From: Amphiscolops sp. MND2022
Taxonomy: Eukaryota
DNA: 64,000 nt
NCBI GenBank assembly: GCA_964187785.1
Contig: OZ076409.1
Span: forward strand, 68,016,001-68,080,000
Direction: 5' to 3'
The translations under genes and the position numbers were made by a program. Within the stretch, counting starts at the first letter, position 1. Each line of letters begins with the position of its first letter. The notes under the pieces were generated by a model. The model did no database searches. It was given only the letters and a program-made list of their open reading frames with translations, and had not been told where the DNA came from. Shown piece by piece: positions 859-49,700 of the stretch.

Positions 859-986
859 ATGCAATTTTGTACAAGTTTTGAAAGCTTCCGTGAGTATGAA
901 TACCCACATAGTTAAATGACAAACTACTTTGCTACTTAACATGGAACAGTGTCTCAGAAAGAGCCAAAAATGTGAAAATGTTGTAG

Positions 987-3900
987 ACAAAGATGAATGT
1001 GCTTCTAACAATGGTGGCTGTCAGACAGTGTGTACTAACACAGATGGCTCTTTTAATTGTGGCTGCAGCACCGGCTACGAGGTTCATCCCAATGGGTTTG
1101 CATGTATAGGTGAGCTGACTCAACATTATTTGGCCAATATCTTCGAAGCAACGAAACGTGCAATTTTGTCTGCAACTGTAAAACAGTTTCGCTATGTTAT
1201 TGATGAATATACAGAATTTAATTGCTTGTTAGTCCGCATCAAACTATATTACTGACTTTCTTAAGACCACGAACTAACGGATTTTTATAAACTAGTTACT
1301 GCCGATCGTCCTGCCACTTGGCCTAGTGGGAAGCGTGGTTTAATAAAAAGCAGGAGTAACTTGGATTCGAATTTTGTGTGGGGCTAAAATGAATTCAAAT
1401 TTTTATTATTTCTGCGATAGCAGGAATAATATAGAAATCTGAAAAATGAAACTTTTCAGTCGACTTTTGTTAGCGATCCGAGTACTTACTAGAAAATTCA
1501 AATTTTGTTCGGCAGTGAGTATAAGCGTGAGATTTAAATTTCTCAAGCTGTCAAGGACACTTCATTTCTCGTGCGATGAAACGAGCAGGTGGTAATTATG
1601 TATTCGTACGCCGAATTCCTTAAGGTGAAGCGAGCGAATGTTCGTAGTTATGCTTTCGTACGTCGAGGTATTGGAATGAAGCGAATGAGTGTTAATTCGG
1701 TATTCGTTCGCCGAGAGCTTCGCCTGCATTCAAATGCGAATACGAAGCTTCGTCTACGCTTAGTAGTGATATATTCTTTAGTCCGAGAAGCATTAAAGGC
1801 GTTGTAAACTGATACAGTAACCATTGTGCGCCATATAATGATTAAGCAGGAGTGTTTGGTTTTTCCAAATATGCTTCTATTATTGAATATGAAAGCCTAA
1901 AAGCAGAAATAAAACCGCGCCCGCAGGGGCCTGTGTTCAAAACTAGAGATGAAATATTATTTCTAGAGGTTTTCGGCACTGTGCGACTTCTTTGGAATTT
2001 TCTCTCCAAAAGGTCAGTTAGGGATAGATAGCGTTTTTCGAGCCTAAAGAGCTTCCCTTCGGGTATTTTTTGGCATTCAGATGTTTGGGAATTATCGCAA
2101 TAATTGTCACGGAGCATGTATAAAAACTCTTATTCAGCCTCAAACGGGCGTCATCTTGGGTCATTCCCGATTTGTTTTTCTTTCTGTAGCTGTGCATACT
2201 GAAACTTAAACGTAATCGATGTTTTGCTTGCTGCATTTCATTTTCGAATACTTGCTGTCGTAAGCAAATTACAATTATTTTGTTCAGTTCATAGAAACTT
2301 TTAGTTTGATCTTGCTCGTAAAACCTCCAAACTGGTTGATATTTCAACCGATTCGCTGGTGCGATATGTGGACAAGTTGACAGAACGTGTGGAGCAAAAG
2401 ATCGCACAGGGGCTTCCAGACAAATTCGTTTTGCTATTTGACGGTTGGACATTTCAAGATGCACATTATTTTTGCGATATTTGCATCATATTTGTTCGCA
2501 AATACTGAAGCGCAAAAAACGGTGCTGTCACAGTTGGACAAAAATGCCTATATTGTCATGTGGAATGATTTCGAAAATGGCATCGCTAAGTGCGTTGATG
2601 GACAAAGTGTTAACCTAACCCCATCTGAAAAGGTAGCACTAAAGCCATTAGAATGTTCATCTAGTTTGGATGTCATGCCAGACGACAGCCCAGAAAATTT
2701 TGCGAAAAACCTGCTCGCTAAAAAAGAGAAAGACGGAAAATACAACGAACATAAATATGCACTGGATTCCCTGGACGTCTAACATATGTGAGCGCATCTT
2801 CAGCAGAGCAAAAGTAACACTTGGGACCCTTCGCCAAAACATGACACCAATGCATCTCGAGGAAACGCTGTTTCTTCAAGTAAACAAACTTTTGGGGTCC
2901 CGAGGTTGCTTCACGTATAGCATAAGTTTGGAGTTTATTATTGTACACTCCATTTAATGACAATGTATTATTTATCCGTATTCATAAAAACATTTATTCT
3001 TGAGATTCAGTTTTATGACATAGTTTATGGACATGTTTCCATAATATGGACATTTTTTTACGGAGTCCCTGATAGAGAGACACCGGACAACAATCTCGAT
3101 ATATTTTGGTAACACTCTTAAAATGTGTTGGAAGTGTCGTTATCAAAAATATATCATGGCAATTTTTCGCTTGATTTTTTTTTCAAAAGTTAGTTTACTG
3201 TTGTCACATCCATGCTCCAAAACCGGAAGTGTGATTTGTAATAAGTGCTATAAGAAAATTAAGTTCGTTGCTTTTTGTATTCAAAAAGCTCTGGAATTTT
3301 ATTCAAAAAACTCCCTATTTACATGGAAGTGCAAAATGTTATTTGAAAATATTTATTATTACGGCAGACATAGATGAATGCGTGACTGGAACGGATACGT
3401 GTGATGCTGTCTCATCTACGTGTAGAAACACAGTGGGCTCATTCGAATGTGACTGCAACGCTGGCTACGAGGTTTCAGCTCCCAACACTTGTATCGGTTG
3501 GTTCATATCACTAAAGGGTTGAAAATTTCAAGTTTTGTCATGAAATAACTGACCTTGAGAGCGTGACTTCTTTGGTGCTATTCAATCCCAATTAATCAAA
3601 AGTGCACGTGAATCAAATGCAAATTCAGTTTGTTTCTTTGTTTTGATGAATAAATTGAAGCGATCTCGTCCCTTAAAGTAGTAGATTTTCGCGCAGCTAT
3701 TGTTAAGTAAATTTACTGGAATGGATCCATTGGAACCAACGTATGCTTAGGTGGCGGACCCAGAGTAGTTCAGTCTTTTAAATTAGCAGCAACCGAAAGG
3801 GCTGCAAAATCAATGGTTTCCATGATACTTTCTGTGTGTTTAATTTTCAGATGATAGAATTTAAGTCCACCGTCAAATACAATGAAGGCCGCCTCCAATT

Positions 3901-6900
3901 GAAAGTTGCAGTGGGCTATTGTTTCGATCAAAAAATGAAGACGCGGCGTTTGCTCCGATAAACGTTGTTTTTTGGAAACTTTGTCAGCAATTTTAGTGCT
4001 GTCTAATTTGTTGAAAATTTACCTGAAGGTATTTTCCTGTAAAGAATTCTGTGAGGTGAAATCGTGTTGGAGTTTCTTGTGATTTTTTTCTAGACATCGA
4101 CGAGTGTGCACGTGGCACTGACCTGTGTGATGATTTTTGTGTGAACACAATTGGTTCCTACGTCTGCTACTGTCTCGATGAATCTCAGCTGCTACTGCAA
4201 GACGAAGTCTCCTGTTCCAGTGAGTACAGAAAATTTTTTCTGCTATCATCTGCTTGGGTCTAGAAGTACGTACCGTAATGTCCGGCGTATAAGAACCAAC
4301 AACCCCCACAATCTACAATTTCACCACCCACATTATAAAATGGGGGGCTTATACGCCGGGCATTACGGCATATCTAATAAAATGTATCTTTTACGCGATG
4401 TCAATTATCGGTCGATTCATAAAACTTTGAGAGTTGCTTCACATTTAGAGCTCCAAACGTTTGTTTCATTTTTTCAAATGCTATGGTGTATGTTAATATT
4501 GATTCTAAATGAAGTGGTTTGTAAAAGAGTAGGCGTTGGGGATATTCTAGTTTTTTTTGCGATAACGAAGTTGTTGAAATGCTGCTGTTGGGTCAAGACA
4601 AAATGACATCTCAATTAACTACGGTATTTGATGCTAGTTGAATTCCTGATTCTATGCTCTAAAATGAAGTGCAACGACTGAAAAAGCGTATGGATTTTCG
4701 TTTAAGAAAAACTTGGTTTGGAATGAGTCCAATTCAGTTAAAATGGTAACTCAGCTTCACCTGCTGCTTGAAACAAAAAATCATTGAACCAACCAGTTCA
4801 CTTCAATTAGTGCCGAAAATTTGAATGTGCTCCATTAAAGATTCAAGTAAATCTTTGTGTCTACGTTTGATAGAATAATGCATCATTGTCTTTTTATCAG
4901 TAACATATGTCAAAACTTTGACTGACAACACATGCAACTTCTGCAAAGTAACAGCTCTGCCTTCAGTTCATTTGATTTCTGGTTGAAAAACTTCAGTCGT
5001 TCTTCAACATAATCTTCAAAATCGTAGCGTCACAAAGGTTCCCGGCGTGATTTTTTTGTAAATGATAATAGAGGGTGATTTTATACAGTGTGTGATTTAA
5101 TTAATGAGAATCAAGACGGCAACGTCTCAAGTCGGGGCGCCCATGTATAGCTCACAAAGTGCTGTCTTATGAATGTATGAAAATGCTGTTTTTGTGATGA
5201 TATTTCCCAGTCTCACAGTGTCGGAAAAGTTTTTCTTTACTGGAATAATGAAAAAACTCCAAAGTGGCACTTTGGTGATAATAAACAATGTCCACTGCCG
5301 AAACGTGCTCTTCTGCAGCCAGCGAAAATGGTTTTTTGATGAGGACGGAAAATCCATGTAGGTTGCATTGAGAACATCTTCACTGGGTGTCCGGACGTTA
5401 CGCCCAATGATTATGCATACTGCCATTTTTGTATATTCAAATATCGAAAATAATACTTACAAAATTTAGCTGTGAAGAAATTACTTTATATCGTCTTGTA
5501 ATGTCTGGTTGGCATAAAAAGTCTACACTTTTTACGTTTGAAAATTCATCTAAAACTTTCTCTTGATCATAAAGGAATCATGGTGATCAATGCGTTAGGA
5601 AAATGTTAGAAAGTAGAAAACATTACCTGACCGATACTTGAAAAAATCTGAATTCATTAAATTGTTAGATGTTTTCTCTATCAAAAATCTGGAGGTTATA
5701 ATTGAATTCATAAGGGCCATATTTTTTTTACTGTGCTAAAACCACAGTGGCGCTGCGTCCTTTTTGAGCATTGCTAGAGAAGCTTGAAGCCCCTCTGAGC
5801 CAAATGAACTGAAAATTAAATCAAAGCTTTCATCGTGCTTGATTGTTAATTCAACTGACAAATGACACTGATGAGAAGCATTAGAAAAGTTGATTAATTA
5901 CCAGAGATTGAAACGATGCTTCAGCTCGCTGTTTCCAATTATACACATCAAAGACTTTTGAATAATACCAAAATATTTCAACCAAATACGAGCTTAATTG
6001 GCTAAAATTTGAGTTCTTCAATGTATCGCCAAATTAAAAACTTTTTTTTACTTCACTGAGCACAAGAAAACCTTCAGTGTATACTCTTCGAAGCATTTTG
6101 CTTCAAAGTATATCATCTTTCATACCTTGGTTCACAACTTAAAATTTGTTATCAACCTCATAACTTACAATCAAAGAACCGACTCAGCTTCTGCTGACTT
6201 GAAGACCCATATACTCGCCTTTTATGGTTGACTTGAACCAACGCCCTTTGTCATTATCAATCATCGACATCTGCTAAAATGGCCGATTACACAAAAGTGC
6301 CGAAAACTCTTACAGTCGACAACATTATGGCTAGAGCTCATACCCGATCGTCTGTCAGGTTAGTGTCATTTTTAATTGTTAACTCTAATGACTAATCTAA
6401 AATCATAATCAAGTTAGTATCAGCCAAGTTTCAATAAGTTTATTTTCTATTTCAAACTGTGCTGCAGAAGTATGATCAGAACTGAGAGTCCGTTGTGGCG
6501 TGATGCAACGTTCAGCAGCCGTATCAAAACAAGCCATGTTGGTATCAAACCAGACGACGCCTTCGCTGATTTGACCTCCCGGAGGTCAAGTAAAGCTAGC
6601 ACCCTGCCAATGGCGACTCCGTCGGATGGCAGAGCTATCTCAAGGTCTGAATCAGCCAAAGCTCCAACTTGCACCCAAAAATCTACAACTGCTACCTCGA
6701 TTACAAAGTCTTCCCAAACTGCCATCGAGAAAAATGATGGTTCAAATGGCTCAGCTCAGGAAAATAAAGAGAAAGAAGTCACAGACGAAGAGTGGATTGA
6801 ACAGTTGGGTAAGAAATTGAAGAAAACAGAGAGAGTTAAGAAAGACCATGTTGATGGAATCCTTGATCATTACAAAGGAGAGCGGACAGAGAAGTTGATA

Positions 6901-9900
6901 AAGCACGGATTAGGTATCAGCTACAGCCCAACTGTAGAGCTCAGTCGAAAAGCATTTTACAAAATTGTGAGGTGAAGCTTAGATTTCTGTGGAGCCTCTT
7001 TTTAAGCGGTGTGAATTTCTCTTCCGGTGAAATTGGCAGATCTGAAATCAATTGTCCAAAATACATATTTTTAGTAGCCAATTATCATATGCCTTGATAG
7101 AATCAAACTTTCGCCATGAATAGCGTCCATTAAATGAAAGTTGAGCTGTAACTGAACTAAAGGTAACTACACTTACAAGAACAAGTTTTTCACTTACGAA
7201 GGTGAGTGGTTTAACGGCGTGAAACATGGCAGAGGCAAAATTACGATGAAGGATGGATCTTTCTATGAAGGGACGTTCCGGAAGGGAGAAATGACAGGCA
7301 GAGGAGTGAAAGTGTGGGAAAACGGCACCAAAACTTACGTGGGTTACTTCAAGCAGGGCAAAATGCACGGTGAAGGAAAAATTATGTCAACAAATGGAGA
7401 CTTTTATTCGGGCGGTTTTGCGGAGAACTTGAGACAAGGGTATGGAGAATCGAAAGACATGGAAGGACTCTATAGGTGAGGGTTTATATTATATATACTT
7501 TTCAAATGAATACGCATTTTATACCTTACAGATTCGGGCAGTTGTAAGTTAGCGTTTTTTTGTGAACAGAGCCCTTTTGCTGATTCATGGAAGCAATTTT
7601 GACACAAAAAATCCATTTTGAGTATCCGAAACTGATTCGACGTTTGGATGAGTAAATTTTGTAACTATCACAATTTCCATATTTGCTTCAAGGGGAATGC
7701 ACGAGAAAGGGCTACGCCAAGGACAAGGCATGTTTATATACGAAGACACTGCGACCTACGTTGGAGATTGGCTGAAAAATAAGCCACATGGCGACGGAGT
7801 CTTCAAGAACAAAGATGGCTTCGTCATAACTGGACAGTTCACGGACGGAAAACCGTCTGTCTGGCCAACAAAGATCGAAATAAACGAAACTGGGCCAATT
7901 AAAGTGTTCAAAGGAGAATATTTTAATCTGTCGTTCCGATATGTGAACCAAAATGGGGAGTCGACACAATGCTACGAAGGAATGCAAATATATGTTTTTC
8001 AGCCACGGAAATTGTGATTTTGTCAAAAATATTTTATAGAAGGTACTCAAAAATAAATCATTATTAGCTCTACCACAGAAACCTATATTTAACCCTATAT
8101 CTAACTATAATTTTGAATTGACCTTTTACCAACTTTTTCAAAATACTGTGTTCCTTAACAGGTGACGTCTAGAAAGCAAATTTGAAAAAAGATCACTTCT
8201 TTTGTGAGATTTGCATTTCTCATTCAGGCTTCAAATGCAAAATGACTGGTTTCTTCAAGAAACCATCTCTGCCGAAGTCTAAGAGAAACAACCTTCCCGA
8301 TATGGTCAAAATTGAGGAGAACCTCCAAATTGTCAAAACACCCTTTTTCAAAGCAATCTCATACCCTATCTGCAACTTTGCCAACTATGTGCACTCTCTA
8401 CATTACCCCTACAACCTTGTTGACGATGAGTCATTGAGGATGAAAAATGAACCTTTGCAAAATGCTTTCGATGAAATCGTTTCTCTGAAGTATTTTTTGA
8501 GTTCATTGGAGAACTCGGATACCCAAATGTTGATGGATAAGGGATTGAAGTTTCCTGAAGACGCTGAACATGAAAGCAACAAGTGGCCCCTGCCCATTGT
8601 AGACGAGTACGTTGTTGATACTACTGGAAGTGGTCATTTTTCAAAAATTGCGTTGCCCGATGCCGATCGTCCTGAAATGCCATACGAACCCTTCGTCATA
8701 GATTCATATCTGCAGGAATATGAGAAAAACAAGAGGAAACATGGTGTCTATTTCGGGGAGAAGCCCAAAGATGTCACCTATGATGCCTTAGGTTGGATCA
8801 TTATTCTACGGTCTTTTTACACAATGTTTGGTTTTGTATTTTTTGGCATTTCTTGTAAAAGAGACCTTCACTGACTGTAAAAAAAAATTGAGCAAGGGAG
8901 GTTTTTCTCCGGAACGCTGACTCGCAGTTGAGCATGTAAATGTATACGTCGTTGAATATATTTTTGTTAGAATAGATGTCAGTTGAGTATTGTATAACGT
9001 GATACATGTTGGTTCATTTTGAGCACGATATGAAAATCAGTTTTTCAGACACTTACTCTGTGGAATAGTGCCACACTGAGCATCAAATACGAATTCGACT
9101 CATAAATCTAATGGTGTTTCAAAAATTTATAGTATTAAATTGCGTTTTTAATGAAGCTTGAGATTTACGAATCAGATGACTTACTCCTTTCAAGTTGGCC
9201 ATTTTCAAGAAAATTTTCTGGAAAAATGAACGATATCGTCAGACAATTCCTTGAAAAATCACGCTAGGTTGCCAAGGTAATATTTTGATACCATGATATT
9301 TTTTCAGGCCGAGCAATCGTGGACGACTCCGATAAAGAGGAGGAAGACGAAGAATCGATATATCCAGGATTGACTGTTGGAGATTTGGAACTTCCTGTTG
9401 AAAAACAGCTGATCAAAATTCTGTTTAACGGCTATGCTCGAAAGGGCCTGTACTGTATAAAACTGGAAGACATAGCCCCCGAGTCAGTGTATACATGGTT
9501 CTCGTTACCGAGACCCGAGCCTGCTTACATCCAAGTAAAAGTGGTCGAATATGCCAAGCGAGTCAAGTCCAAACACAGATCTAGTTCTAGAGGGAGTGGT
9601 CGCCAACGTACAGACGAGGCTGCCCCAACTGAACAGTCGAATACTAATATATAAACCACAAATTTCTAAAAGAGGACAGTGGGTTCTCAGATCTACTGTA
9701 TTTATCTGGACCTTAAGTAGATTTCCATATCTAAAGTTATCTATTAACAACTTTTTATTGCGAGAAGCAAAATTTCAAAGATTCCACTCGTTTTCAGGCG
9801 AGTTTTGAACCAAACAAGTTACGCCATTTTGTTGAAAATCAACAGAAAAGATATGTATAACTTTTTGTCATAACCCTGAACCATTGACATATTTGCGGTT

Positions 9901-16938: not shown

Positions 16939-18658
16939 CACTATGGTAGCAAAAAGCTACGTACAGCTGAAAATTAAATCTCAGTCAGTTTGTGAAGAAC
17001 TTTTCATTTTCATTCTCAACCGGAAGTGAAATCAATCACTCTTGGATTAAACATTGTTGAAAATGGTCAAACCTTTGGATTCATACGTTGTTTGCAAAAT
17101 CGTTACACTTCGCGAAATGGGTTTATCATACAAAGGATTTAAAGAAAAGTTGGGTCTTAAATCTCGATCGACAGCTCAAACAGCTTATCAGCGTTTTTTG
17201 AGAACGAACTCTTATGTGGCGAAAAAACCTCCAGGCCGGCCAGAAAAGCTCAGCGAAAAAGAGCAAAGACTAATAGTTTGAAGAGTGGAAAAAGACCCAA
17301 AAACAACATTAGAACGAGAAAGAGTACTGCAAAACTCTTTTTCAACGTCAAAGACAGTTTCTAAATGCACTATTCGAAGAATCCTGAAGAAGTACGGAAT
17401 TGTTTCTAGAAAAGCCGCAAAAAAGTTTAACTTGAACAAAAAACAAAGGCTGGTCAGAAAACGCTGGTGCTCGAGAATGTTGAAAAAGCCCCTTGGTTTT
17501 TATCCAGCGTCAATTTTCACCGAAAATGGGAAAAAGTTATGGAATTTTTTGAAAGAAAAAATATTTGAGAAAATTCTCAAAATGCCGAAAAAACCAAAAC
17601 GAAATAAAATATTTTATCAAATCAATCACTTTGGTAGAGTGAACTAATAGCGCTTTTGATGGTGCTGTCAATGATACAAGACGAGAACATCTAAAGTCGG
17701 CGCTAAACCTAAGGCTCAAAAAGCGCAAAGTGTAGAAACTCTGCTCAGAACTTTTATGAAAAGACAAAAAACCTCAAAACACCAAAATATCATAAAGTTT
17801 GAAAGGGGACCCTTTAGTCTCGTTCGGTTTCGTATGTTGCGTTAAAAAAGAGAAAATGAGAGGGGGGACCTTCTGCACTACCTTAGATGCATATTCGCTG
17901 GCCAGATTTGGGTGTTATTGTAAGCTTGAAGAAGGTTGTTTTTGTTTCACTCGAACTTTTGCATTTTTGTTCTGAAATTCGGCTGGATGGAAACTAGGCT
18001 TCTGGGAAAACGTCGTATTCTCAGACGAAACCCGTGTGCGCTTGAATAGTGATGGCGTTGTGCGGGTGTTCAGGAAAACTGGTCGTCGCTTTTGCCCGAA
18101 AAACACACAGGGAATACGCACAGACAAAAGATCGATGATGTTTTGGGGGGCCATCAGATCAGATGGTAGAAAAATGCTAATTAAATGTCCCGCAACACTC
18201 AACAGTTACGGATATTTGGAGATTTTAAAGCAATACGATCGACATTTGAATATAACGGATTTGGTGTTCCAGCAAGACAACGCCCCAGTACACAAAAGTG
18301 AAGTTGTTCGCAATTTTCTGGCCCAAGAGCAATGGGTGGTGCTGGATTGGCCAGCTTACAGTCCTGACCTGAATCCTATTGAAAATATTTGGGCTATTTT
18401 TTAAAAAAGCTTGCGAGGTCAGATTGTTACCTGGGAGAATTTAGAAGAAAAGGTTATGGAAGTGTGGAACAACATAAACCCTGATGTTGTTCGCAACTTG
18501 TACTCATCGTATGAGAATCGTCTGGTGAAGGTAATCAAAAACCATGGTAGTTTGACGGGATATTGATTTATTATTTGTTTCAACAGTTGTTTCAAATTTT
18601 ACTGTTCTGAGTTTTTTTTAAAAAATGTTGGTGTACGTAGCTTTTTGATACCATAGTG
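16939..18658 (+). mobile_element. Tc1/mariner DD34E transposon, disrupted
   Basis: 27-bp TIR CACTATGGTAGCAAAAAGCTACGTACA (1 mismatch), TA TSD. Transposase about 17063-18566 with FSDE, QQDNAPVH and SPDLNPIE (34 aa between D and E). In-frame stop at 17279, a ~500 bp insertion and a frameshift near 18400. Confidence 0.92.
17489..17998. mobile_element. Insertion interrupting the Tc1 transposase
   Basis: Splits ..MLKK / FWENVVFSDE. Imperfect terminal IR (TTTTATCCAGC / GCTGGATGGAAA). Contains family B-like sequence. Ends are approximate. Confidence 0.6.
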
Positions 18659-22105: not shown

Positions 22106-22959
22106 CTCCAATAATGTTTCATCTGGATTTTTCAATATTATTCAAGATTTGGATGCTTTGCATTCAGATTCAAGATGTGGATTTAGGGTTTGCAATTGCT
22201 TTGCAGAAATCAAAAATGAAAATTCTGGAATTTCACGTATACAGTGCAAGCTCGTTATCTGCAAATCGAAGAAATGGAAATTTTGGAATTCCTGGGCTTG
22301 CCGAGCGTGATTTTACCTACTAAATTTTTTGTTGGCGCTTTCATTAGAAAAATGTTCCATTTTTTCAACATTAACACTGTTATTTGATTTTTTGCTTCTA
22401 TTTCTAGTGAAATGAAATACTCCGTTTTCCATTTTTTTCCAATTTTTTTCATTGAAATTTTCGACGTTGAAAATTTGATGATGATAATTGCATCTCAAGA
22501 ACAGACCGTTTTTTAAGAAAAATTGCCTTTTTGGTATTTTGATGTCCTTTTGTTGCTGATAAATCCGCTTTCAGTTGTATAAAGTATGATTGTCTTACGG
22601 ATAAAATCACTGTCGAGGATAGAAGCAAGATGCTACTTGTAATGTCAGTTAGTGTTTTATGCCGCTCTTCTATAAGGAGTGCATCGAGTCCTTCGGCTAT
22701 ATTATTTCATATATGATGCCATATCGACCTGCCATAAGCAGTCTTCATATTCGCATTAGTGTATACCCCGCAGTTACTATTAAGATTCGCAGTTTTGTTC
22801 AGAGTTTGGGTCCTACTGAAACTCGGCGACAATTGAGAGGGGATTCAAATTGCAGTTGGCTTAAAATTTTTCCGGTTTGATATATTTTTCTAATAGAAAC
22901 TGTAGTGTACTTTTACACAATTTTAGTGATGTAACTTTTGATTTTCAGGTAGTTCATGC

Positions 22960-25900
22960 ATGCTGGGCTATCTTTCTGTTCCCAGGGCCTCTTTGAACCT
23001 TGCCTCCTCCTCATCCAAAAACCAGTTTGTAAAAAAGAGGACGAAATGGCTGGACAGCCATCATCGTTTTGTTCTTTTTGTTCTTTGTTTACACTTGATG
23101 CCTCTCACCTTAGCTGCCAAAAAGACAACAGATGACAACAAGAAGTCTTGTGATCATTGTAGAGAATTAGTTGGCAAATTTATTGACGAGTTCAAACTCA
23201 CAGACAGGCACGATTTCCTCATATGATAACATTTTATTGGAATGAAAGTTAAATACAATGTGAATCAGTGATTTTTGTGTGCAAATCCCAAGGCACATTG
23301 TCGAAAAGCACTTTGCGATTCGGTGTTGTATTTTACATATAAATTAGTTCTCCACTTGCCGAAGTGTCCAAATTTATCTCTAAGGGACTTACACTGGGTT
23401 GGAGCTCTGCAGCTTGCAGCGTACACCTCAACACGGGCTACATATTTAAATCATCGCCCTTTTTGGTAGAAAGCAAGGGAAGAAAAAGACAAATAATTTT
23501 TTGAAAATGCGTATCGTTTCGCATTTCGTCATCAATTCAAATCACACTTGTTCCATCTTTATTATTATGATACTGACTGTGCTCTAAAAGATTCATTAAA
23601 ATGAAAGGTGTAACAACGGTAGTGAATAAATTGCGAAAGTGGTCGCTGGATCAAAGATCGTTATCTGAAAAGCTATATTGGATCAAATAGTGACGCAATA
23701 ACGAACAACTCATTAGTGCATGTGTGGCGTTGCTAATTTGTCGAAACTCAAGTTTAGACGGTACCTTCTAAACAACTTTGAGTCCTAATTATTCAGTTAC
23801 ACGTTTTTATTTTGCTATAAATATTGCAAAAAAAGTTTTTTCGACATAAGAGAATTCACCAAAGTTCTAGTTTTTTTTTCATTTGAAAACAGTGAGGGAT
23901 GAAATAGCCATAGCTATTGCTGCAGCGAACTAACGAAAATAGCGATTTTAAACTGCACATGCTCGTGAATAGCGGATCTAACCTCTGGTCAAAATGCTTT
24001 TATTCCTTTCCGACCGGAAGCGTAAAAGCATTTTCCAAACTGTAAATCACTATTGCGGACATGAATTTTCACCGTTTCAATTTTCATATTCGGCAATGTA
24101 TAGCGTTTCATTGAAGACATGTACTCTTCAGGTAAATTTCGAATTGATGAGCGCCCAGAGATCAATGAAAAGTAAATTTCTTTGAATTGGACGATAATTT
24201 AATATTTGCCGAAGGAACTGTAGATCGACCCTCCGTCGACCAGCTAGGATAGAGGCCTCTGTAAATGTCATAGTCTAAGAGTAAGGACTATTTTATCCTT
24301 GACAAATTTTCTGGAGCAACTAATCGTGTAACTAATCCTTTTCTGACGATTTGTAAAAGTGTGATACTTATTTTATAAATTAGCGCCAGCCAATGTCCAC
24401 TAGCCAATGTTTCAATAGGACAGATACTGACACCTTAAGGTGGGCTCTGCGGCTTGTAGCGTATTGACACCTGAGGAACTTCACGGGCAAATGCAAGTTG
24501 CTTTATCATTTCACCCTGAGGTTTTGAGACACACGGTCCCCTTTCTTTCTCGATTCTAAAGTAATACGTACTCTAAGTTTCAACAGTATTACATCATCAT
24601 ATGAGGAAACTACGACAGGGGACTATTTGAGGGAGGGGACACTGACTGGGAAATCAAAAATTTGAAAGATTACAAGAAGAGCGAAGTGCGATTTATTGAA
24701 ATTACAGAGAAAATATATAAATGTAAAGTTGATCACGTCACACGATTACTTGAAGAGGTGAGTGAGTTTCCTTTTCATACTGTGTTGTATTACAATGAGA
24801 GCCACCTTATTTTTTGAATGCTCAGTTGAAGAACCTGCTGCGTTTTTGTCTATATAAACTTTCGATAAACTATATAAACTTTTCCTATGCTAATTTTAGT
24901 CGACGCTGGATGAAATTTAATAGAGCGCGAATTTTTAGTGGTTTTTCATCGTTTTCTCAACTGGATCGAAATGATCACAATAGTTCTACCAAAAGTTCTA
25001 CAGAAAAACATCTTCGGATTATCATAAAGAAAACGTTCAAAATGTCCTTTTTTATTTTAATGTTTTCAGTTATAAAGCTTTTTTGAGCCCAAAAGAGCCC
25101 CAATTTGGTAACATTTTTTTTCAAAAAGTCCCTGAGTATTTTTGAGAGACTTTCCTTTTTTGGATCCTAAAGGGAGGCACCGACATGTGCCGTTTTTGGC
25201 TTTTTAATAGTTTTTTGTTTTCTTCAAAACATAAGGTCGTCTGGATAATACACTGTAATTGTCCACGAGTTGTTTCAACTTTATTCATTCCTAGCACGGA
25301 ATTTCCATGCACCGTTATTCGACAGTAACTTTTTGTTTTTACCTGCACGAAATTTCAGGTTGAAGAAAACCTCGAAGATTTTTGGCGCGACCACTGGCAG
25401 CACGTGGGCGACTCAAACGAACTTGACAGCTACTTATGTGTGTCTTTGAAGAAGGTCTGTTGTCCTTATGGCTTCTTCGGTGCTGAGTGCTCGCCCTGTC
25501 AGAGCGGGGAAGAAGCCACGGCCGGGTGTTCTGGACATGGATCATGCAATGGAAATGGCACTAGGGGCGGCACCGGTTGGTTTCACAGCTCTTTGAAAAT
25601 CAGTTTGGTTGCATCAGTTCTGGGAAAACGTGGTGCGGTTTTGTATATTTGACTCGTATTGCGAAAATCTTACAAGTTGCATCTCAGTTTCATCTGTGTG
25701 CGCTGAAATTGTTTTTTTTTTAAATCTGAAACTCTTTTCTTGATAAATAGATAAAAACATCAACTTAGAATTGAGATGAACAAAATTTTGAGCATTCATG
25801 AATTTGACAGTTTTTCCTCAATTTCAAATATTGTTCAGGAAAATGCAAATGTGACGAAGAGTATCGTGGGTCGTTCTGTGAGGAGTGTAAGAAGGGCTAC

Positions 25901-26794
25901 CAACGCGAGGAAGAGAACCAAACATGTGTCGACATCGATGAGTGTGCCCAGAAAGATAAGCCCAAGTAAGTCATCTCTCATAACCTTACCAATAATCATG
26001 AGTTGATTTGAACACTTCAAATCGAAAAGCTGGTTTGAGTATTATGGTAACTGAGCATGTTTTTGAATGAATATCCTTGAAACTATTGCCTCTGGGAATG
26101 TACCTGCTTCTCTCGCTTTCAGTGCTTCTAGTTCAATTTAATGTCTTTATCCGAATGCACGAGTAAAATTGGTAAGGGTGCGAATAAACAATTTTAATTG
26201 ACTGACAACGACACGCTCGGGGTCGATTCCGTAATCACTACTGTATTCTCGCCATTCATGAAAACTACTTTAATTTTTAGTCTGTGTGAAGACGGGAAGT
26301 ACTGCGACAACAACCCCGGTTACTACTCTTGCAGAAAATGCCACGAAGCCTGCAACAACCTCACTTGCAACGGACCTGAACCCGAGAACTGCACAGGCGA
26401 CTCGTGTGCCGAGGGCTACTTAAAACTACTGGACGGTGACTCGGTTATCGGGTGCAAGAAAGACGAGGAAGAGGAAGAAGAGGAAAATTTAGGTGAGGGT
26501 GATGATTTAAATGCAAACGTTTCTTCAGATGGTGCAAATGGTACTGATACTTCAGTACCTGTTGAAGTAATCAATACAGAAGTTGGTTCTTCTGGTGAGA
26601 GCGTAAATGGTAAAGAGGTAGGCGAGGATAAAGGAAACGGGAATGGGCCATCGCATGAGGAAGCTATAACTGAAGCTACTGCCGACGATCATGGTAATGA
26701 GAATGATGATACTGTTGTGTTGAATTTGGAAGACAGTTTGGAAGATGTAGAAGCAATATCCAACCCCGAAAGACCCAACAATATTGAACTCTGA
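22960..26794 (+). CDS. CRELD: Cysteine-rich with EGF-like domains protein, soluble ER-type isoform (acidic tail ending NIEL)
   Basis: Exons 22960-23207, 24619-24757, 25359-25575, 25839-25965, 26281-26794. Hydrophobic signal, CDHC motif, FEGGDTDWE..YKKSEVRFIEI (WE domain), LCV..LKKVCCP.G.FG..C, CSGHGSCNGNGTRGGTGKCKC, DIDEC, CHEAC. Confidence 0.9.
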
Positions 26795-27642: not shown

Positions 27643-29565
27643 CAGGGGTGTTCAAAAATTGATTTTGAAGAAAACAATCAATTATTTCAAAACAATCAAT
27701 TAAATTGATATTGCAACCGTAACAATCAATTAATTGCAATTAATTGGTATAAACTAACATATCCCAGACACTAGTTTTTCGTCCCAAAATTTATTGTTTA
27801 TTTTGAGAAAAAGTTGCTCTTCGAGGTGAATGGGTAGTAGTCGTTGACGATGATCGTCGAACGCAAATGTTGCGCTACTGAAGAAACGTTCAATGATGTT
27901 CGATGTTGGAAGTAGAAAGTTTGTGTTCATAAACTCTTCTTTCTTGGTGGAACCCAGTCTGCGCTTTTTAATGATATCCATTGCAAAATCTTCCTTGTCT
28001 GATTCCAAAGGTGCGTCTGTTGGTGTCTGCAACAACAGATTTGAAGAGACAGTTCTCTCTTCAATGGTCAAATTTGAAAATTCCTTGTCTTGAATTTTCA
28101 CCACAGCGCGTTCAAAAGCAGAAGAGTGCACAATCTTAGCATCTGCAGCAATGTATCCGGACATGTCTGGATATTGTTCAATAACTGAATCAAAAACAGC
28201 TCTTACTTCTGCCATTGTTACATCATCTCTTTGTAGAGCTTTCTGAACGCCATTAAACTTTGCCAATTTTTTTTCCAACTCGGCAATATCTGCATTCTCT
28301 CTTGGTGTTGGAATGAAATCAATGATGAGCTTCTCACGTGAAAATTCAGGCTGGGATAAAATTTCCCGAAATTTTCCATACCGTTCCACCATAGCGTAGG
28401 TACTTGACCAGCGCGTATCGTTTCTCTGAACTGGTCTGAGATCTGTGTGCAAACGTAACATTAAGTTGTTGATCTTTTCAAGAATAGCGCATTGAGGTTT
28501 CAAATGTTCTTTCACGGCAAGATTAAATCTATGTGACGCGCACCCAATCAAGGGGAGATTGCACTTGGTCGATAGTGCCTTATTGACTGATACGTTATCA
28601 CCAATTATTGCTATGACATTTTCAAAAGTCTTACCATATACACTGAGTACCCAACTAATGAATTCATAATGTTCATCCGCGCCAAACTCAGTTTCACAAA
28701 ACATTGGCGAGAAAGCAAGCATCACGCTTTCGTAGCCTCCAACTTTCCCCAGGTCAGGATAGGTGGCAAATACTCCGACAAAATGCACAGACGCCTTTGT
28801 CCACCCGTCAATGACCAAAGCAATTTTCTCTGGTAAAATATGAGAAATCTTCTTCTCAACCTCCTTGGTAAGAATACCCATATATTTTCGCAAGGTATTT
28901 TCGGAAATACTCTCCAGCCTTATGTACTCCCGGATAGTTGTATCCTCCACAAAACTAAAGGGTCTCATTCCATCACAGATAATTCTTATCCAACCGTAAA
29001 TATTCATCCCTTTTCTTGAAGTTTCATCCACGGCAAATGCGTTAATAACACTTGGTGTATTGTTTACGGCGTTCGCAGATTCTTCTGGATGTTGTCGCTT
29101 TACATGATTAAGCAAATTACTCCATCCAGTGTTTTTCTTTTGCACGAGAACTTTTCCACATTTACATTTCCATGTACCAGCACTAATGTCGATCTGCTTG
29201 AAATATTTCGAGCACGTATCTTTTGGTAAAACTGGCATGGTTAAATTGTCATGCATGAAAAATAACCTGAAAGTAAAGTGAAAGTGACTATAATAAAGTA
29301 AACACAGCTGTGACGTATTATTTGCTCAGAAGTAGGCGGCAGCGTCACTACTCACTACATGTACTCACTCACTGCGTACTGTACACCACTGCCCTGGAAA
29401 CAAATTAATGCCGTGGCAAACAAAACAAAATGGAGGCAAAATATAATTGCAATTAATTGGTCCAAAACAATCAATTAGTTGGTATTGCAATGTACGAAAA
29501 ATCAATTAATTTAATTGCAATTAATTGCAATTAATTTAATTGCAATGTAATTTTGAACACCCCTG
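27643..29565 (-). mobile_element. Near-intact hAT DNA transposon (1923 bp)
   Basis: 15-bp perfect TIR CAGGGGTGTTCAAAA, perfect 8-bp TSD GTCAGGTG, subterminal AATCAATTAATTGCAATT-type repeats. Confidence 0.95.
27754..29256 (-). CDS. hAT transposase (BED finger, DDE, dimerisation domain)
   Basis: 500-aa uninterrupted ORF with WKCKC..NLLNHV..H, VIDGWT, IGDN, CASHRFNLAV, TRWSS and TSNIIERFFS. Confidence 0.92.
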   Translation of the reverse strand: MHDNLTMPVLPKDTCSKYFKQIDISAGTWKCKCGKVLVQKKNTGWSNLLNHVKRQHPEESANAVNNTPSVINAFAVDETSRKGMNIYGWIRIICDGMRPFSFVEDTTIREYIRLESISENTLRKYMGILTKEVEKKISHILPEKIALVIDGWTKASVHFVGVFATYPDLGKVGGYESVMLAFSPMFCETEFGADEHYEFISWVLSVYGKTFENVIAIIGDNVSVNKALSTKCNLPLIGCASHRFNLAVKEHLKPQCAILEKINNLMLRLHTDLRPVQRNDTRWSSTYAMVERYGKFREILSQPEFSREKLIIDFIPTPRENADIAELEKKLAKFNGVQKALQRDDVTMAEVRAVFDSVIEQYPDMSGYIAADAKIVHSSAFERAVVKIQDKEFSNLTIEERTVSSNLLLQTPTDAPLESDKEDFAMDIIKKRRLGSTKKEEFMNTNFLLPTSNIIERFFSSATFAFDDHRQRLLPIHLEEQLFLKINNKFWDEKLVSGIC

Positions 29566-45687: not shown

Positions 45688-46671
45688 CTAAAAATGAAGC
45701 TATTATAGTTTCTTGGGCCAAATGGTTTAATTAGGCACCTTAAATATCTCAGTGCCGAATTGGTTCGAATTTTATCGGCTCGAAATGACAACCCTATCAA
45801 AACCAACTTACATGCACTTCTTTTGTGACAAAAGCGACTGAGAGACTTTTTAAACCTAACTTGCTGAGGTCAATTAGCAACAGCTAAAATTTTGATTTAA
45901 ACAGTCAAACTTTATACCGATTTTCGAGTGTTTGAACATTAAAAAGTCAATTAAAAAAATGTTTCCACCCTGTTCTGGCATTTGTGAACTAGGACGCTAG
46001 GGGTGCCAGTTTTGCTGTTTTTGAGACCATTTCAATTTAAAATAAAAACGTGATCAACCTAAGCAAACTGCAAAAAACAGCACATTGAACTCCTATTTAA
46101 TAAAGGTGAACGTCTGGATTAAGAATTTGTTGAGAAACAAGCACCGAATCATGGATTTCTACAGAAACTGTTTACAGCTACAATTGTGGGAAATCTACGA
46201 TAGACTAAGTGTGTTAGAAATGTCGAGCTAGATTCTTTCAAGTGTTTGAAAGAAAAAGCATACAATGAAAAGTGAACTAACCTGCCTGACTCAAGCCGCG
46301 TAACAGTGTAAATGAATTCTCAACGAGAGTGAAATTGGACAACAACAATTGATTGACGTGAATTTAAATTAGAATGCGCCTTTTCGGTCATTTCGCAGAA
46401 CTGCTGTCAATTTCACTGAAAGATACTACGTTTCATAGAATCATGTTACGTCATCACCATATATGGTACGACTCACGTCATGGACTTCTTGGAATTTCTA
46501 TGCATTTCAAGGAATCTGGCGCTACTAGTATTTTGTATGTAAATTAACCTGTTTATAGCCTTTATATACGGGGTGCTCAACCTATTATGCATCAATTCAG
46601 ATCAAATAATATTCAATACAATATTCACTTCTACAATCATCTTCAATCGCAATCCTGCTCATAATCCTAGA

Positions 46672-46685
46672 GGTTATGGGCCCAG
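46672..46685 (+). promoter_or_regulatory. Primer binding site of the half-tRNA-iMet type
   Basis: GGTTATGGGCCCAG directly abuts the 5' LTR; this is the PBS type known from Drosophila copia. Confidence 0.8.
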
Positions 46686-46757
46686 TCTAACAACTCTCAG
46701 ACGTGCTCAACTTGTGGAAGACGTGCCTGGCTCAATCTAGACGAACTAGCTTCCAAG

Positions 46758-49700
46758 ATGGATTTCAAGCTTGCCCAATTCAGTGGAAAGGCAGAGGACT
46801 TCCCCGCTTGGAGCACGAAGTTTGTGGCACTCATGCAGACGAAGGGACTGTTCAGTGCTGTGATGGGTCAAGACGATACTCCAGATGAATTGGAGCAACT
46901 GGTTGACGGGGCAACTGCAGAGCAGAGTTCAGAACACGAAACCAAAGTGGCTGAGAGGGAGAAGATCATGAAGGGCATCAAGAATCGCAACAATGAAGTC
47001 TGGTGCAATCTGGTTCTGGTACTGGACAACACTACTCTGATGTGCCTTCGCAGTGACTGCTTCAATCAGAGGACTGGTTTTGGAGATGGGGCTCTGGGGT
47101 GGAAGATGCTATTGGAACGCTTCAACTCTTCTGAGAGGCCGACAGTGGTCAGTCTTGTGGGACAGCTGGCCAAACTCCGCCTGGGTCCAACCGAGAAGCT
47201 AGATGACTACTTCGTCAGAAGTCAAGAGCTGATGACCAGGCTTAGCGATGCTGGTGAACGGGTCTCGGACACACTCTTCAATGCTCTGGTGATCAATGGC
47301 CTCCCCGAGCAATACGAGCATTTTGTGGTCCAGGAGAGCTTCCAACCTGCAACAACGTTCCAAGAGCTCAGAACGAGGCTACGCAACTTCGAAGACGCGA
47401 AACGGGTGAGGCAAGAAGAGCAGCAGACTGGCAATCATGTGGCGATGCATGGGCTGAGGAGGGGCAATTCACGCGATGCGAAGAAGGGTGGTGCTGGACA
47501 CAAAGCTCAGACGAAGAAGGGCATTGACCACATTACACGCTATAGATGCAAGAAGAAGGGGCACTATCAGCGGGACTGCAAGGAACCTGAGAGCTCAAGC
47601 AGTGCAAAGACGTTTTCAGCCTCAAGGACTGGCTGGCAACGGCAACTGGAGTCCTCTTTTGTAGTGGACTCAGGTTGCACTGATCACGTGGTCTACGCTA
47701 GGTCTTTCTTCACGACGTTTGAGGCATCCAACACTGGAGAGGGTGTGGTCAACCCGAATGGCTCTCTGGCAGACGTGAAGGGCAAGGGAACTGTGGAGGC
47801 GTTCATTACTGATGTCAACGGCATTGAGCGAATGTACAAATTCCACGACGTTTTGTTCGTCCCAAGCTACAATGTGAACCTGATGAGTGTCAGTAGGGCG
47901 GAGGCGAAGGGCAACACTTTCATCTTCAAGGGTGACCAACCGGTCATTCAATGTGGTCAAGACGAAGCATTGCCGATGTGTCTTCAGGGTCAGCTCTACT
48001 ATCTTCAATGCAGATTCAGTGGCCTGGCTCGAGCACACTCAGCGAAGGAGACAAGGGATGCAACGCTCTGGCACAGACGGATGGGGCACCTAAATTTCAA
48101 CGATGTCAAGAAGGTGCACTCTGACCTCAACGGGGGCCAACGCGAAGTGTGTGAAGTGTGTTCGATGTCCAAGCTTCATGAACTACCAGTTCCAAAGCAA
48201 ACCCAGACGAGGAGCAAACACAAGGGCGAGCGGGTCTTCAGCGACATTCAAGGACCACTCGAGGTGCCCAGTTTACATGGGGCACGGTATGCACTGACGT
48301 TCATTGACGATTTCAGTCGGTATGCAGTGGTCAATTTTGTGGTGCGCAAAAGTGACACCCTTGAGTGCTTCAAAGAATACGTGGTTCGTTACGGGGCACC
48401 AACAGAACTTCGAACTGACAATGGTGGAGAATACACGTCAACAGCATTCAAGAACTACTGTAAATCAAAGGGCATACATCAGGAGCTGACGGTGCCGGGT
48501 ACCCCACAACAAAATGGAGTGGCCGAGAGATTCAACAGAGTCAGTATTGAAATGACAAGATGTTTGCTGCTTGAGGGAAAGCTGGGCAAACAATTCTGGG
48601 TCAGGGCCATGGCAACTGCCGTTTACCTACGCAACCGATGTCCAACAAGCAGCAACGATGGAAGATCACCATACGAGGTCTATTTCGGTAACAAACCAAA
48701 ATTAGATCATGTTAGGGTTTTTGGCTGCTTAGGTTATGTTCTCAAGAGGTCTGCAAAGAGGTCCAAGCTGGACAACAAGGCAACGAAGGCCAAGTTCATT
48801 GGGTACGATGACAACAGCAAGGCCTACCTCATGATGGATAGTGTGACACAGAAGGTGATCAAAGCCAGGAGTGTGACTTTCGACGAGAACAACATTCCAC
48901 TTCTGGGTGGAGGTACACCGAACGAGGAAAGTGAAATCTTCATTTCATTGAGTTTTCCTCCAAGGTCTCACGAGGACACAGTGGGGGACAACACTAAAGA
49001 AAGCGCAGAGGCCCAAGCTGCTGCAGAGGTCACTGGTGATCAAGACGAAGACAATGGTCAAACAGTTGAGGTTCAACCAGCCAACACGCGACCGAGAAGG
49101 GAAATCATGGTCCCAACGCGCTATGGTCTAGCGTACTCGCATGCTGCTGAGGCAATCTACCCTTACGAACCTGGCAGCTACAGAGAGGCAATGGCATCTC
49201 CAGAAAAGGAGAAGTGGCAGGCTGCAATGCAAGACGAATTGAATTCGCTCAACGATAATTCAACATGGACGCTAGTTGACAGGCCAAAGGATAGAAAGGT
49301 GATCTCTGGGCGATGGGTCTACAAGATCAAGACAGATGAGCAAGGAAACATCGATAAATTCAAGGCTCGCTATGTCGCGAAGGGTTTCATGCAAGTCCCG
49401 GGACTGGACTTTCACGAGACGTATGCTCCAACGTGCAAACCAGAGACGATGAGAACTTTGTTCGCACTAGCTGCTCAGTGGGGCCTAGAGCTTCATCAGA
49501 TGGACGTCAAAACGGCCTACTTGAACTCACCTTTGACAGAAACGGTCTACATGGAACAACCAGAAGGGTTCACAGAGAGCAACGACAAAGTGTGTTTACT
49601 TCAACGCAGTGTTTATGGTTTGAAGCAAGCAGGACGAGACTGGTATCAAACGCTAAGTTCTTTTTTAGAGGAAACGGGTTTCATTAGAAGCAAAAATGAT

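Follow-up and report, generated by a model that had tools for sequence, protein, structure and literature searches.

A likely GA-AG intron in an acoel MORN-repeat gene and a class of GG/GA splice donors attributed to hAT transposon ends

Introner elements, hAT-type introners, and GA or GG splice donors are all already known, each separately. Here we describe a locus at which they appear to come together: a likely GA-AG intron, at positions 7980-8227 of a 64,000-nucleotide (nt) window, in a MORN-repeat gene of the acoel Amphiscolops sp. MND2022. The window, which is the whole stretch analyzed (contig OZ076409.1, positions 68,016,001 to 68,080,000; G000:C1:68016001-68080000 in our numbering), belongs to an animal genome of 1.07 Gb. 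Our reading is that the intron likely represents a class with donors of the form AG^G(G/A)ATG (the caret marks a splice border) that comes from hAT miniature transposons, and that pairing between its ends probably helps an ordinary spliceosome; for splicing, our evidence consists of DNA sequence, homology, and modeled folds.

Introner elements are spliceosomal introns derived from MITEs (small transposable elements with inverted repeats), as in Micromonas and Aureococcus (PMC9860276, PMC12130899, PMC11282704; here and below, statements on published systems refer to the cited sections of each paper). As proposed for the present class, the transposon gives one splice site and the target or neighboring exon the other, and the net length of the mRNA is unchanged. 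Families of hAT type are among the introners of PMC12130899 (supplement 8), and those in places 1-32 of 63 are labeled mostly GT or GC, a few GA, and none GG. The class described here is unlike introners in that its donor, GG or GA, lies inside the hAT inverted repeat. None of the acoel genera that we searched for is present in the species table of PMC12130899, and the splicing passages of PMC9911081 deal with trans-splicing only. Our literature search, outside of which subscription papers fell, brought up neither a description of GG/GA donors that form a class built from hAT ends nor any account of noncanonical donors or introners in acoels.

GA and GG donors are described for Eurytemora affinis and Oikopleura dioica (PMC5714493, PMC7072748), where, as here, an AG at the exon end is obligate, position +3 is A, and the acceptor is a normal AG; the MORN intron has both donor features. 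The Eurytemora introns, described as recently gained, make up ~10-12% of those sampled and are mostly GA, whereas the present class amounts to ~2% and is mostly GG, below the 3-12% of the Eurytemora/Oikopleura type. Unlike the introns in those texts, the class here has a fixed ATG at +3 to +5, a complement of the donor near the acceptor, and a traceable hAT source, and while a U1 variant has been proposed for E. affinis, none was found here among 21 U1 copies over the cut-off.

MITE-derived noncanonical introns with inverted repeats and target duplications are also known from Fritillaria borealis and Amoebophrya, together with an adapted spliceosome (PMC11282704, PMC13326754); there most introns are noncanonical and both ends change, whereas in the present genome such introns form a small fraction, the acceptor remains AG, and both U1 and U6 appear canonical. 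In euglenid nonconventional and intermediate introns, as in this class, a stem derived from inverted repeats joins the intron ends (PMC11282704, PMC3935182), although their borders are variable and their mechanism of removal is described as unknown. The class here keeps G at +1, AG at the exon end, and an AG acceptor, with a stem that spans the donor (-2 to +8). A variable border of the euglenid kind was not seen in the MORN intron, which has CAG at its 3' border; for the other class members, an AG end was part of the search itself.

Maize Ac/Ds elements, which are of hAT type, are removed from RNA as introns, as is predicted for this class. The splicing of Ds is imprecise and uses GT donors inside the element, whereas here it would be exact in frame and would start from a GG or GA donor in the repeat. 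The Ac/Ds end, C/TAGGGATG, has the same sequence as that of the present class and likewise goes with an 8-bp duplication; CAGGGATG is the start of the maize Ac end, C/TAGGGATGAAA (PMC3260210).

A non-GT junction in the MORN gene

The gene comprises six exons that join into an open 663-amino-acid product, and its other four introns are all GT-AG (Table 1). Pfam finds MORN repeats (PF02493) in it and nothing beyond; the name MORN1 is a label that we presume to apply. Two of its acceptors are AAG rather than YAG (7160-7162 and 7690-7692).

The junction in question reads GAAG^GAATGC at 7979/7980 and TTCAG^GC at 8227/8228. When every donor in the region was scored with every AG, the frame being kept open, the pair 7980/8227 ranked first of all those enumerated with a score of 462, against 441 for the runner-up, 428 for the best two-intron GT/GC solution (with a micro-exon), and 420 for the best GT/GC pair, which uses the GT at 7994 and adds 11 residues. 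There is no indel across the junction in P0002 (NCYQ-GF) or in the Symsagittifera roscoffensis protein XP_063713275.1 (P0005; QCYE-GF). The clean join put forward by the first-pass annotation is thus borne out, and the alternative that it had set against this join, a GT donor such as 7994 with another acceptor, is the lower-scoring pair just given. All the canonical alternatives tried (GT 7994, GC 7971, GC 7984, GT 8014, and micro-exons) scored lower and added or deleted conserved residues.

A full HMMER search gave four relatives of exon 5, among them one that clusters with P0005 and one from Convolutriloba macropyga (XP_075244368.1; P0004), relatives that point to an acoel lineage; a word search for longer exon 5 homologs found none. 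Proteins on genomic contigs that read through from the exon end in CYEGMLS in P0006 (S. roscoffensis cluster), CYEGMQAF in P0133 (a closer relative), and CYEGMQIY or CYEGMQTY in the same species. The shared CYEG-M implies that G-N-A-T-G is kept in relatives, with base +2 not readable from protein. At this point the C7 paralog likewise carries a phase-1 intron, whose donor is AG^GTACGC; the position is thus common to a GT-donor paralog, and it is also that of the S. roscoffensis-type exon end. A genome search for a second haplotype or copy of the intron locus returned only the self match, and metagenome contigs held no orthologous DNA, only 66 loci with generic MORN repeats. On homology, the GA-AG observation at 7980-8227 is confirmed, and a real non-GT donor at this intron is very likely.

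GG and GA donors in dynein genes and a hAT-type source

Donors of this kind were sought in the regions of 17 dynein heavy-chain genes found with PF12774, using a spliced aligner with profiles from DNAH2 homologs and a second pass with paralogs. All 16 donor dinucleotides were allowed (GT 0, GC -2, others -5 bits). This gave 561 introns, 369 of them with gap-free, well-scoring flanks; the 367 of these that are at least 60 nt long were counted, and 194 introns stayed outside the statistics. Well-anchored calls that were neither GT nor GC numbered 23, and seven of them share AG^G(G/A)ATG, six as CAG^GGATG and one as CAG^GAATGC. Among the other 16, 13 lack both features and resemble alignment noise, and 3 follow AG without the motif. 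The orthologous gene in the dynein alignment has GT donors at 41/41. Where the first-pass annotation had asked for a genome-wide count of GA-AG introns with end pairing, the sample gives 7/367 for GG and GA together (1.9%; 0.8-3.9%) and 1/367 for GAATG, in dynein genes that may not represent the genome. Among all local joins, the seven class joins rank first in five cases and second in two; six beat the best GT/GC alternative, and the seventh has none. An initial reading of GA as a lone mutation, GA calls being as rare as decoys, was dropped because the GG and GA calls share their context.

The class also stands apart in the pairing of its ends. Sliding each donor (-2 to +8) along the last 36 nt of the intron and counting at least 8 Watson-Crick pairs, we found a complement to the intron's own donor in 6/7 class introns (2.8% with foreign acceptors), 0/7 AG^GTATG introns, 2/321 other GT introns (2/328 for all GT), and 2/9 AG^GC introns; the Fisher p value is 1e-10 for the class against all GT and 0.005 for the class against AG^GTATG. 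The 3' element is CATCCC(T/C), once CTTCCCT, and ends 12, 12, 12, 12, 14, 15, and 17 nt before the intron end; the bases upstream of it match the intron's own +6 to +9 in most cases. The 12-nt spacing follows from an element that ends in CCTG, then an 8-bp duplicate, then a host YAG. For three of six dynein class introns, a distant GT paralog has an intron at the same position but the closest paralog does not. Such sharing means that the shared position of the MORN intron does not settle its age, parallel gain at CAG sites being possible. Target duplications in GT introns at large were not above chance.

Ends of the form CAGG(G/A)ATG...CAT(C/T)CCTG with 8-bp target duplications constitute a hAT/Ac-type inverted repeat, and they are found in the class in this genome. 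A pattern search for GG ends with an interior of 150-450 nt gave 24 hits against 6 in a reversed control. Of the 22 distinct hits, 19 join reading frames of at least 35 codons on both sides, compared with 425/3000 random CAG..AG joins, and their duplications match at 3.9/8 against 2.2 in shuffles (p<1e-4), with a peak at offset 0 (0.51 vs 0.22-0.37). Five elements (L280, L281, L286, L292, and L317) are ~68-83% alike over parts of their interiors, L317 being a GA-donor member of a GG family. In 26 exon pairs given to Pfam, most without a hit, both halves fell into one family for three, with exact continuity across the junction for a kinase (model positions 126 and 128 on the two sides) and a ryanodine-receptor repeat (185 and 187).

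A young copy among the GA-pattern hits, L300, has a perfect duplication and lies inside a frame of 315+148 codons. Its family has 42 matches; 30 loci were read, 18 of them with both ends, and 13 of those 18 have duplications of 7-8/8. Among the family loci, in either orientation, only L300 has a YAG (CAG) after the duplication, and splicing there would restore its long open frame. Another copy, L361, breaks up a long frame and has no AG. Survival of only those exonic insertions that can be spliced out would be expected to leave such a pattern. A search for canonicalized descendants (CAGGYATG) gave 21 hits against 48 in the control, mostly repeats, and was dropped for want of enrichment. Taken together, we consider it highly probable that the class is real and made by hAT elements. 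Predicted GG/GA junctions lie, for example, at G000:C11:6175952-, C11:6167176-, and C2:20468250-20468645-.

The MORN intron has the donor motif of this class and an inverted complement of its donor, and ends of the form CAGG(G/A)ATGCAAA occur elsewhere in the genome (9 hits including itself, against 6 in the control). We somewhat favor hAT descent for the MORN intron itself, which would be an old, decayed member of the class or else an intron of earlier origin whose donor came to be of this type.

Several observations in these data concern other elements and introns. The window has an element of its own, whose end, CAGGGGTG, differs from that of the class; an intact-looking DNA transposon, likely of hAT type, occupies 27643-29565, with ends CAGGGGTGTTCAAAA, a perfect 8-bp duplication GTCAGGTG, and a 523-amino-acid open reading frame (ORF) with a BED finger on the minus strand. 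Two odd but well-supported donors outside the class, CAG^GAAAGG (C11:6178764-; rank 1 of 104) and CAG^CTACATG (G000:C7:65116615-; rank 1 of 119, with GT in paralogs there), may each reflect an error, an allele, or another mechanism. GC-donor introns of the forms AG^GCACGCAT (four) and AG^GCAGTG have long complements near the acceptor (G000:C11:6176735-, C11:1736140-, C11:1730246-, C11:1689178-, and C11:41546312+) and are possibly further transposon-derived families. The dynein paralogs at G000:C1:36.78 Mb and C11:6.17 Mb, which are 76% identical, share no intron position in columns 1244-1876 and most positions after that block, which suggests local intron turnover.

End pairing, U1, and U6

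At the MORN intron the first-pass annotation had proposed pairing between the intron ends in two registers. In the first, AATGCAAAT (7981-7989) is complementary to ATTTGCATT (8209-8217), and the helix grows to 12 pairs (7978-7989 with 8209-8220), one of them G.U; the second, GAATG with CATTC (8221-8225), is present but only 5 bp long. Measured against its own intron end, the donor makes 9 Watson-Crick pairs and 1 G.U of 10, and 0/367 foreign acceptor ends reach 9. The duplex energy is -14.1 kcal/mol, equaled by 1/367 foreign ends; by this cruder measure the first GT intron of the same gene reaches -16.7. The intron holds a further donor complement, which we call A (the one just described being B; Table 1). 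Two full 9-nt donor complements occur in 0/10000 shuffles and 0/276 foreign intron ends, and a single one in 135/10000 and 10/276. The core pairs between donor and complement A have predicted probabilities of 0.86-0.98, and distal pairing of +1 to +5 is 0.87, a value above 0.8 being reached in 3/89 GT introns; two other introns of the gene reach 0.53 and 0.62.

The components that would read such a donor appear standard. U1 candidates numbered 42, of which 21 scored over the cut-off, and among these no variant is complementary to the +2 change; two pattern searches added none, and a degenerate copy below threshold, L024, starts AATCATTCCAG. Among the copies scored, no U1 variant thus offers itself as a cause, and the five CATYCC pattern hits are unlike U1. 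All 10 strong U6 copies carry ACAGAGA. The U12-type donor consensus is RTATCCTT, and the MORN donor, which reads GAATGCAA, does not match it.

Some U1 copies have features of their own. Among the variants (L014, L020, L021; L012, L013, L016-L019; L010), AUACUAACCUG in 3 copies fits GTTAGT, the joint commonest donor (27/328), and others have ACCUU or ACUUG at the end, which would match exons that finish in AAG^ and CAA^. Three U1 genes of different subfamilies (L015 at G000:C12:5217627, L008, and L022) have the same foreign sequence at the 5' end, and L015 carries a short insertion with a 17-nt duplication of U1; the picture resembles that of a mobile element that targets U1.

From these elements a route to an intron can be sketched. 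A host site with NAG right after the target would allow cuts after the CAG of the element and at that AG, 11 nt past the element; the host NAG would be swapped for the element CAG and the frame restored, and only exonic insertions of that geometry would survive. The major spliceosome, with U1 and the ACAGAGA of U6 unchanged, would read G+1, the exon-end AG, and +3A/+4U/+5G, while the former inverted repeat would hold the donor beside the branch and acceptor region. Selection would then preserve the repeat as the interior and the target duplication degrade. Among 15 coding-like elements whose duplications reach at most 4/8, a set chosen for low values, the duplications match at 36/120 positions against 31 expected, and positions +6 to +8, which the search pattern does not fix, pair at 30/45 against 15.3 expected (0/50000 shuffles). 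A pairing that began as a hAT terminal inverted repeat needs no function to exist, and as judged from sequence we lean only slightly toward its being functionally needed. A bolder form of the proposal, which we hold tentatively and do not favor, is that in acoels the hAT end CAGGGATG is a ready-made intron with a GG/GA donor and that the mirrored copy beside the acceptor lets the intron itself replace the 5' arm of U1, as an unchanged spliceosome would require for a cut there, the pairing having stayed under selection long after decay and even having been duplicated in the MORN intron.

Table 1. Features of the MORN gene and its GA-AG intron (window positions)
Feature	Position	Strand	Basis or remark
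Probable first coding exon	6327..6358	+	Assumed ATG, donor AG^GTTAGT; fits open 663-amino-acid product; without homology support
Exon 2	6468..6913	+	Ends at GT donor 6914; matches P0005 residues 13-164; spliced alignment
Exon 3, MORN repeats	7163..7475	+	Pfam PF02493, spliced alignment
Exon 4, last MORN repeats and unique region to ...QCYE-G	7693..7979	+	Pfam, homologs, spliced alignment
Donor AAG^GAATGCAAAT	7977..7989	+	Fits class motif CAG^G(G/A)ATG and hAT-type ends CAGG(G/A)ATGCAAA elsewhere in genome
Likely GA-AG intron, phase 1, 248 nt	7980..8227	+	Top-scoring enumerated join; homologs continuous across
Complement A, TGTGTTCCTT	8147..8156	+	10-bp helix with 7977-7986 (8 Watson-Crick, 2 G.U); predicted donor partner, centroid fold
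Internal AG^GT just 3' of complement A	8160..8163	+	Possible recursive splice point leaving 66-nt GT-AG intron
Complement B, ATTTGCATTTCT	8209..8220	+	Site of first-pass annotation; 12-bp helix with 7978-7989; ends 7 nt before intron end
Exon 5	8228..8791	+	Homologs, spliced alignment
Last coding exon with stop	9308..9654	+	P0005 match, spliced alignment, open product

Elsewhere in the window, exons with EGF-like repeats (920-4220) and a CRELD-like gene (22942-26794) have GT donors; we take both labels as presumptive, Pfam having found nothing in two CRELD-like ORFs scanned. A 1374-amino-acid Copia-type retrotransposon ORF lies at 46671-50795 and a DDE_3 transposase fragment at 17976-18404.

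Competing explanations and significance

A number of observations weigh against the reading that we prefer. At the level of the class, one of the seven dynein introns, C12_22, owes its place to a manual re-reading, the aligner having called a CA donor 3 nt upstream, and it is the one without a predicted terminal helix among the four dynein class introns folded. The donor CAG^GAAAGG is a well-supported GA donor with neither motif nor pairing. The GA pattern gave 18 hits against 13 in the control, with 6/18 coding-like, and the junction of L311 (an ACSL-like, AMP-binding enzyme) is ~3 residues longer than the Pfam model. A terminal helix is predicted at >0.5 in 23/25 pattern hits, which were chosen for perfect ends, so that pairing is partly built in. 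The MORN intron itself has a duplication of 3/8 after complement B, a spacing to the acceptor of 7 nt where the class has 12-17, no other match in the genome, and a similarity to 49 element sequences that is unconvincing even at its best (z 3.4), and it shares its position with the GT-donor C7 paralog. Helix B has a predicted probability of at most 0.06, since B has competing partners nearby in 8176-8184 and in the next exon, where AATGCAAAA (8234-8242) may form a hairpin with it across the acceptor; moreover, P0131, from the same species, has Ile>Thr, which implies a +10 change that would shorten helix B. Of the pairing proposed by the first-pass annotation, then, complementarity beyond chance holds, while the fold predicted for the donor is with 8147-8156 rather than with B. 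Its further idea that terminal pairing licenses weak donors survives as an association in the class; the origin in hAT inverted repeats had been missed, and licensing itself would be one interpretation of that association.

The closest competitor accepts the introns as real and transposon-made and takes the pairing to be what the inverted repeat passively left behind, or else a fixed motif, for instance a branch point, with A or G at +2 tolerated after a strong exon-end AG, as in Eurytemora. We regard it as unlikely; in its favor, pairing is expected by descent, helix B is not the predicted fold, YTRAC overlaps the 3' repeat in 6/25 elements, and normal U1 makes 6-8 pairs with the GG/GA donors, about as well as with GT (mean 6.9), so that end pairing may be unnecessary. 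A duplication that lies in a pyrimidine tract may also decay faster than neutral and hence be a poor clock. What speaks for more than descent is that the 3' element is kept in 7/7 introns chosen by homology (7-10/10 pairs) while their duplications have fallen to 2-5/8, and that the pattern-free positions of the old elements, a set selected for low duplication scores, still match their own donors at twice the expected rate.

Other explanations concern the MORN intron alone. With A at 7981, the donor differs from a standard one by a single base; this A could stem from a mistake in the assembly or from a private allele in which an ancestral AG^GTATGC lost its function. A GT paralog has its intron at the same position, the proteins of relatives (GGN, Gly) cannot tell T from A, and a similar lone oddity exists in the CAG^CT call of a dynein. 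We think this improbable, since AG^GTATG accounts for only 7/328 GT donors, none of which shows end pairing, since both complements in this intron place a T opposite the +2 A, and since the genome holds a GA/GG class that shares the motif. Slightly less probable still is splicing in two steps, in which the insertion of an element took place immediately upstream of the ancestral GT donor, today's 8162, so that GA 7980 to AG 8161 is removed first, regenerating AAG^GTGACG, and a 66-nt GT-AG intron follows, with the same mRNA as the result. This would explain the ancestral position; complement A, the predicted partner, ends 5 nt before the AG^GT at 8160-8163, and among the well-anchored GT introns sampled the shortest is likewise 66 nt long. 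Complement B finds no explanation in this scheme, though, no duplication is visible, and YAGGT occurs by chance in 48/276 intron ends.

If the intron is, as we hold likely, a member of a hAT-derived class whose end pairing assists an ordinary spliceosome, it bears on two open questions, namely, how animals gain introns and how spliceosomes accept donors other than GT. One genome shows side by side young elements that lie outside genes, a young copy that sits in an exon and has a perfect duplication, exonic copies of greater age, variants from GG to GA, and introns that have decayed, as this one has; because U1 and U6 appear unaltered, what pairing between intron ends does is directly testable. 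The result also suggests asking whether the GA/GG donors of Eurytemora and Oikopleura share this source. For acoels, gene models may be broken at ~1 intron in 50; if true, ~2% of introns would mean many hundreds to thousands missed by gene finders.

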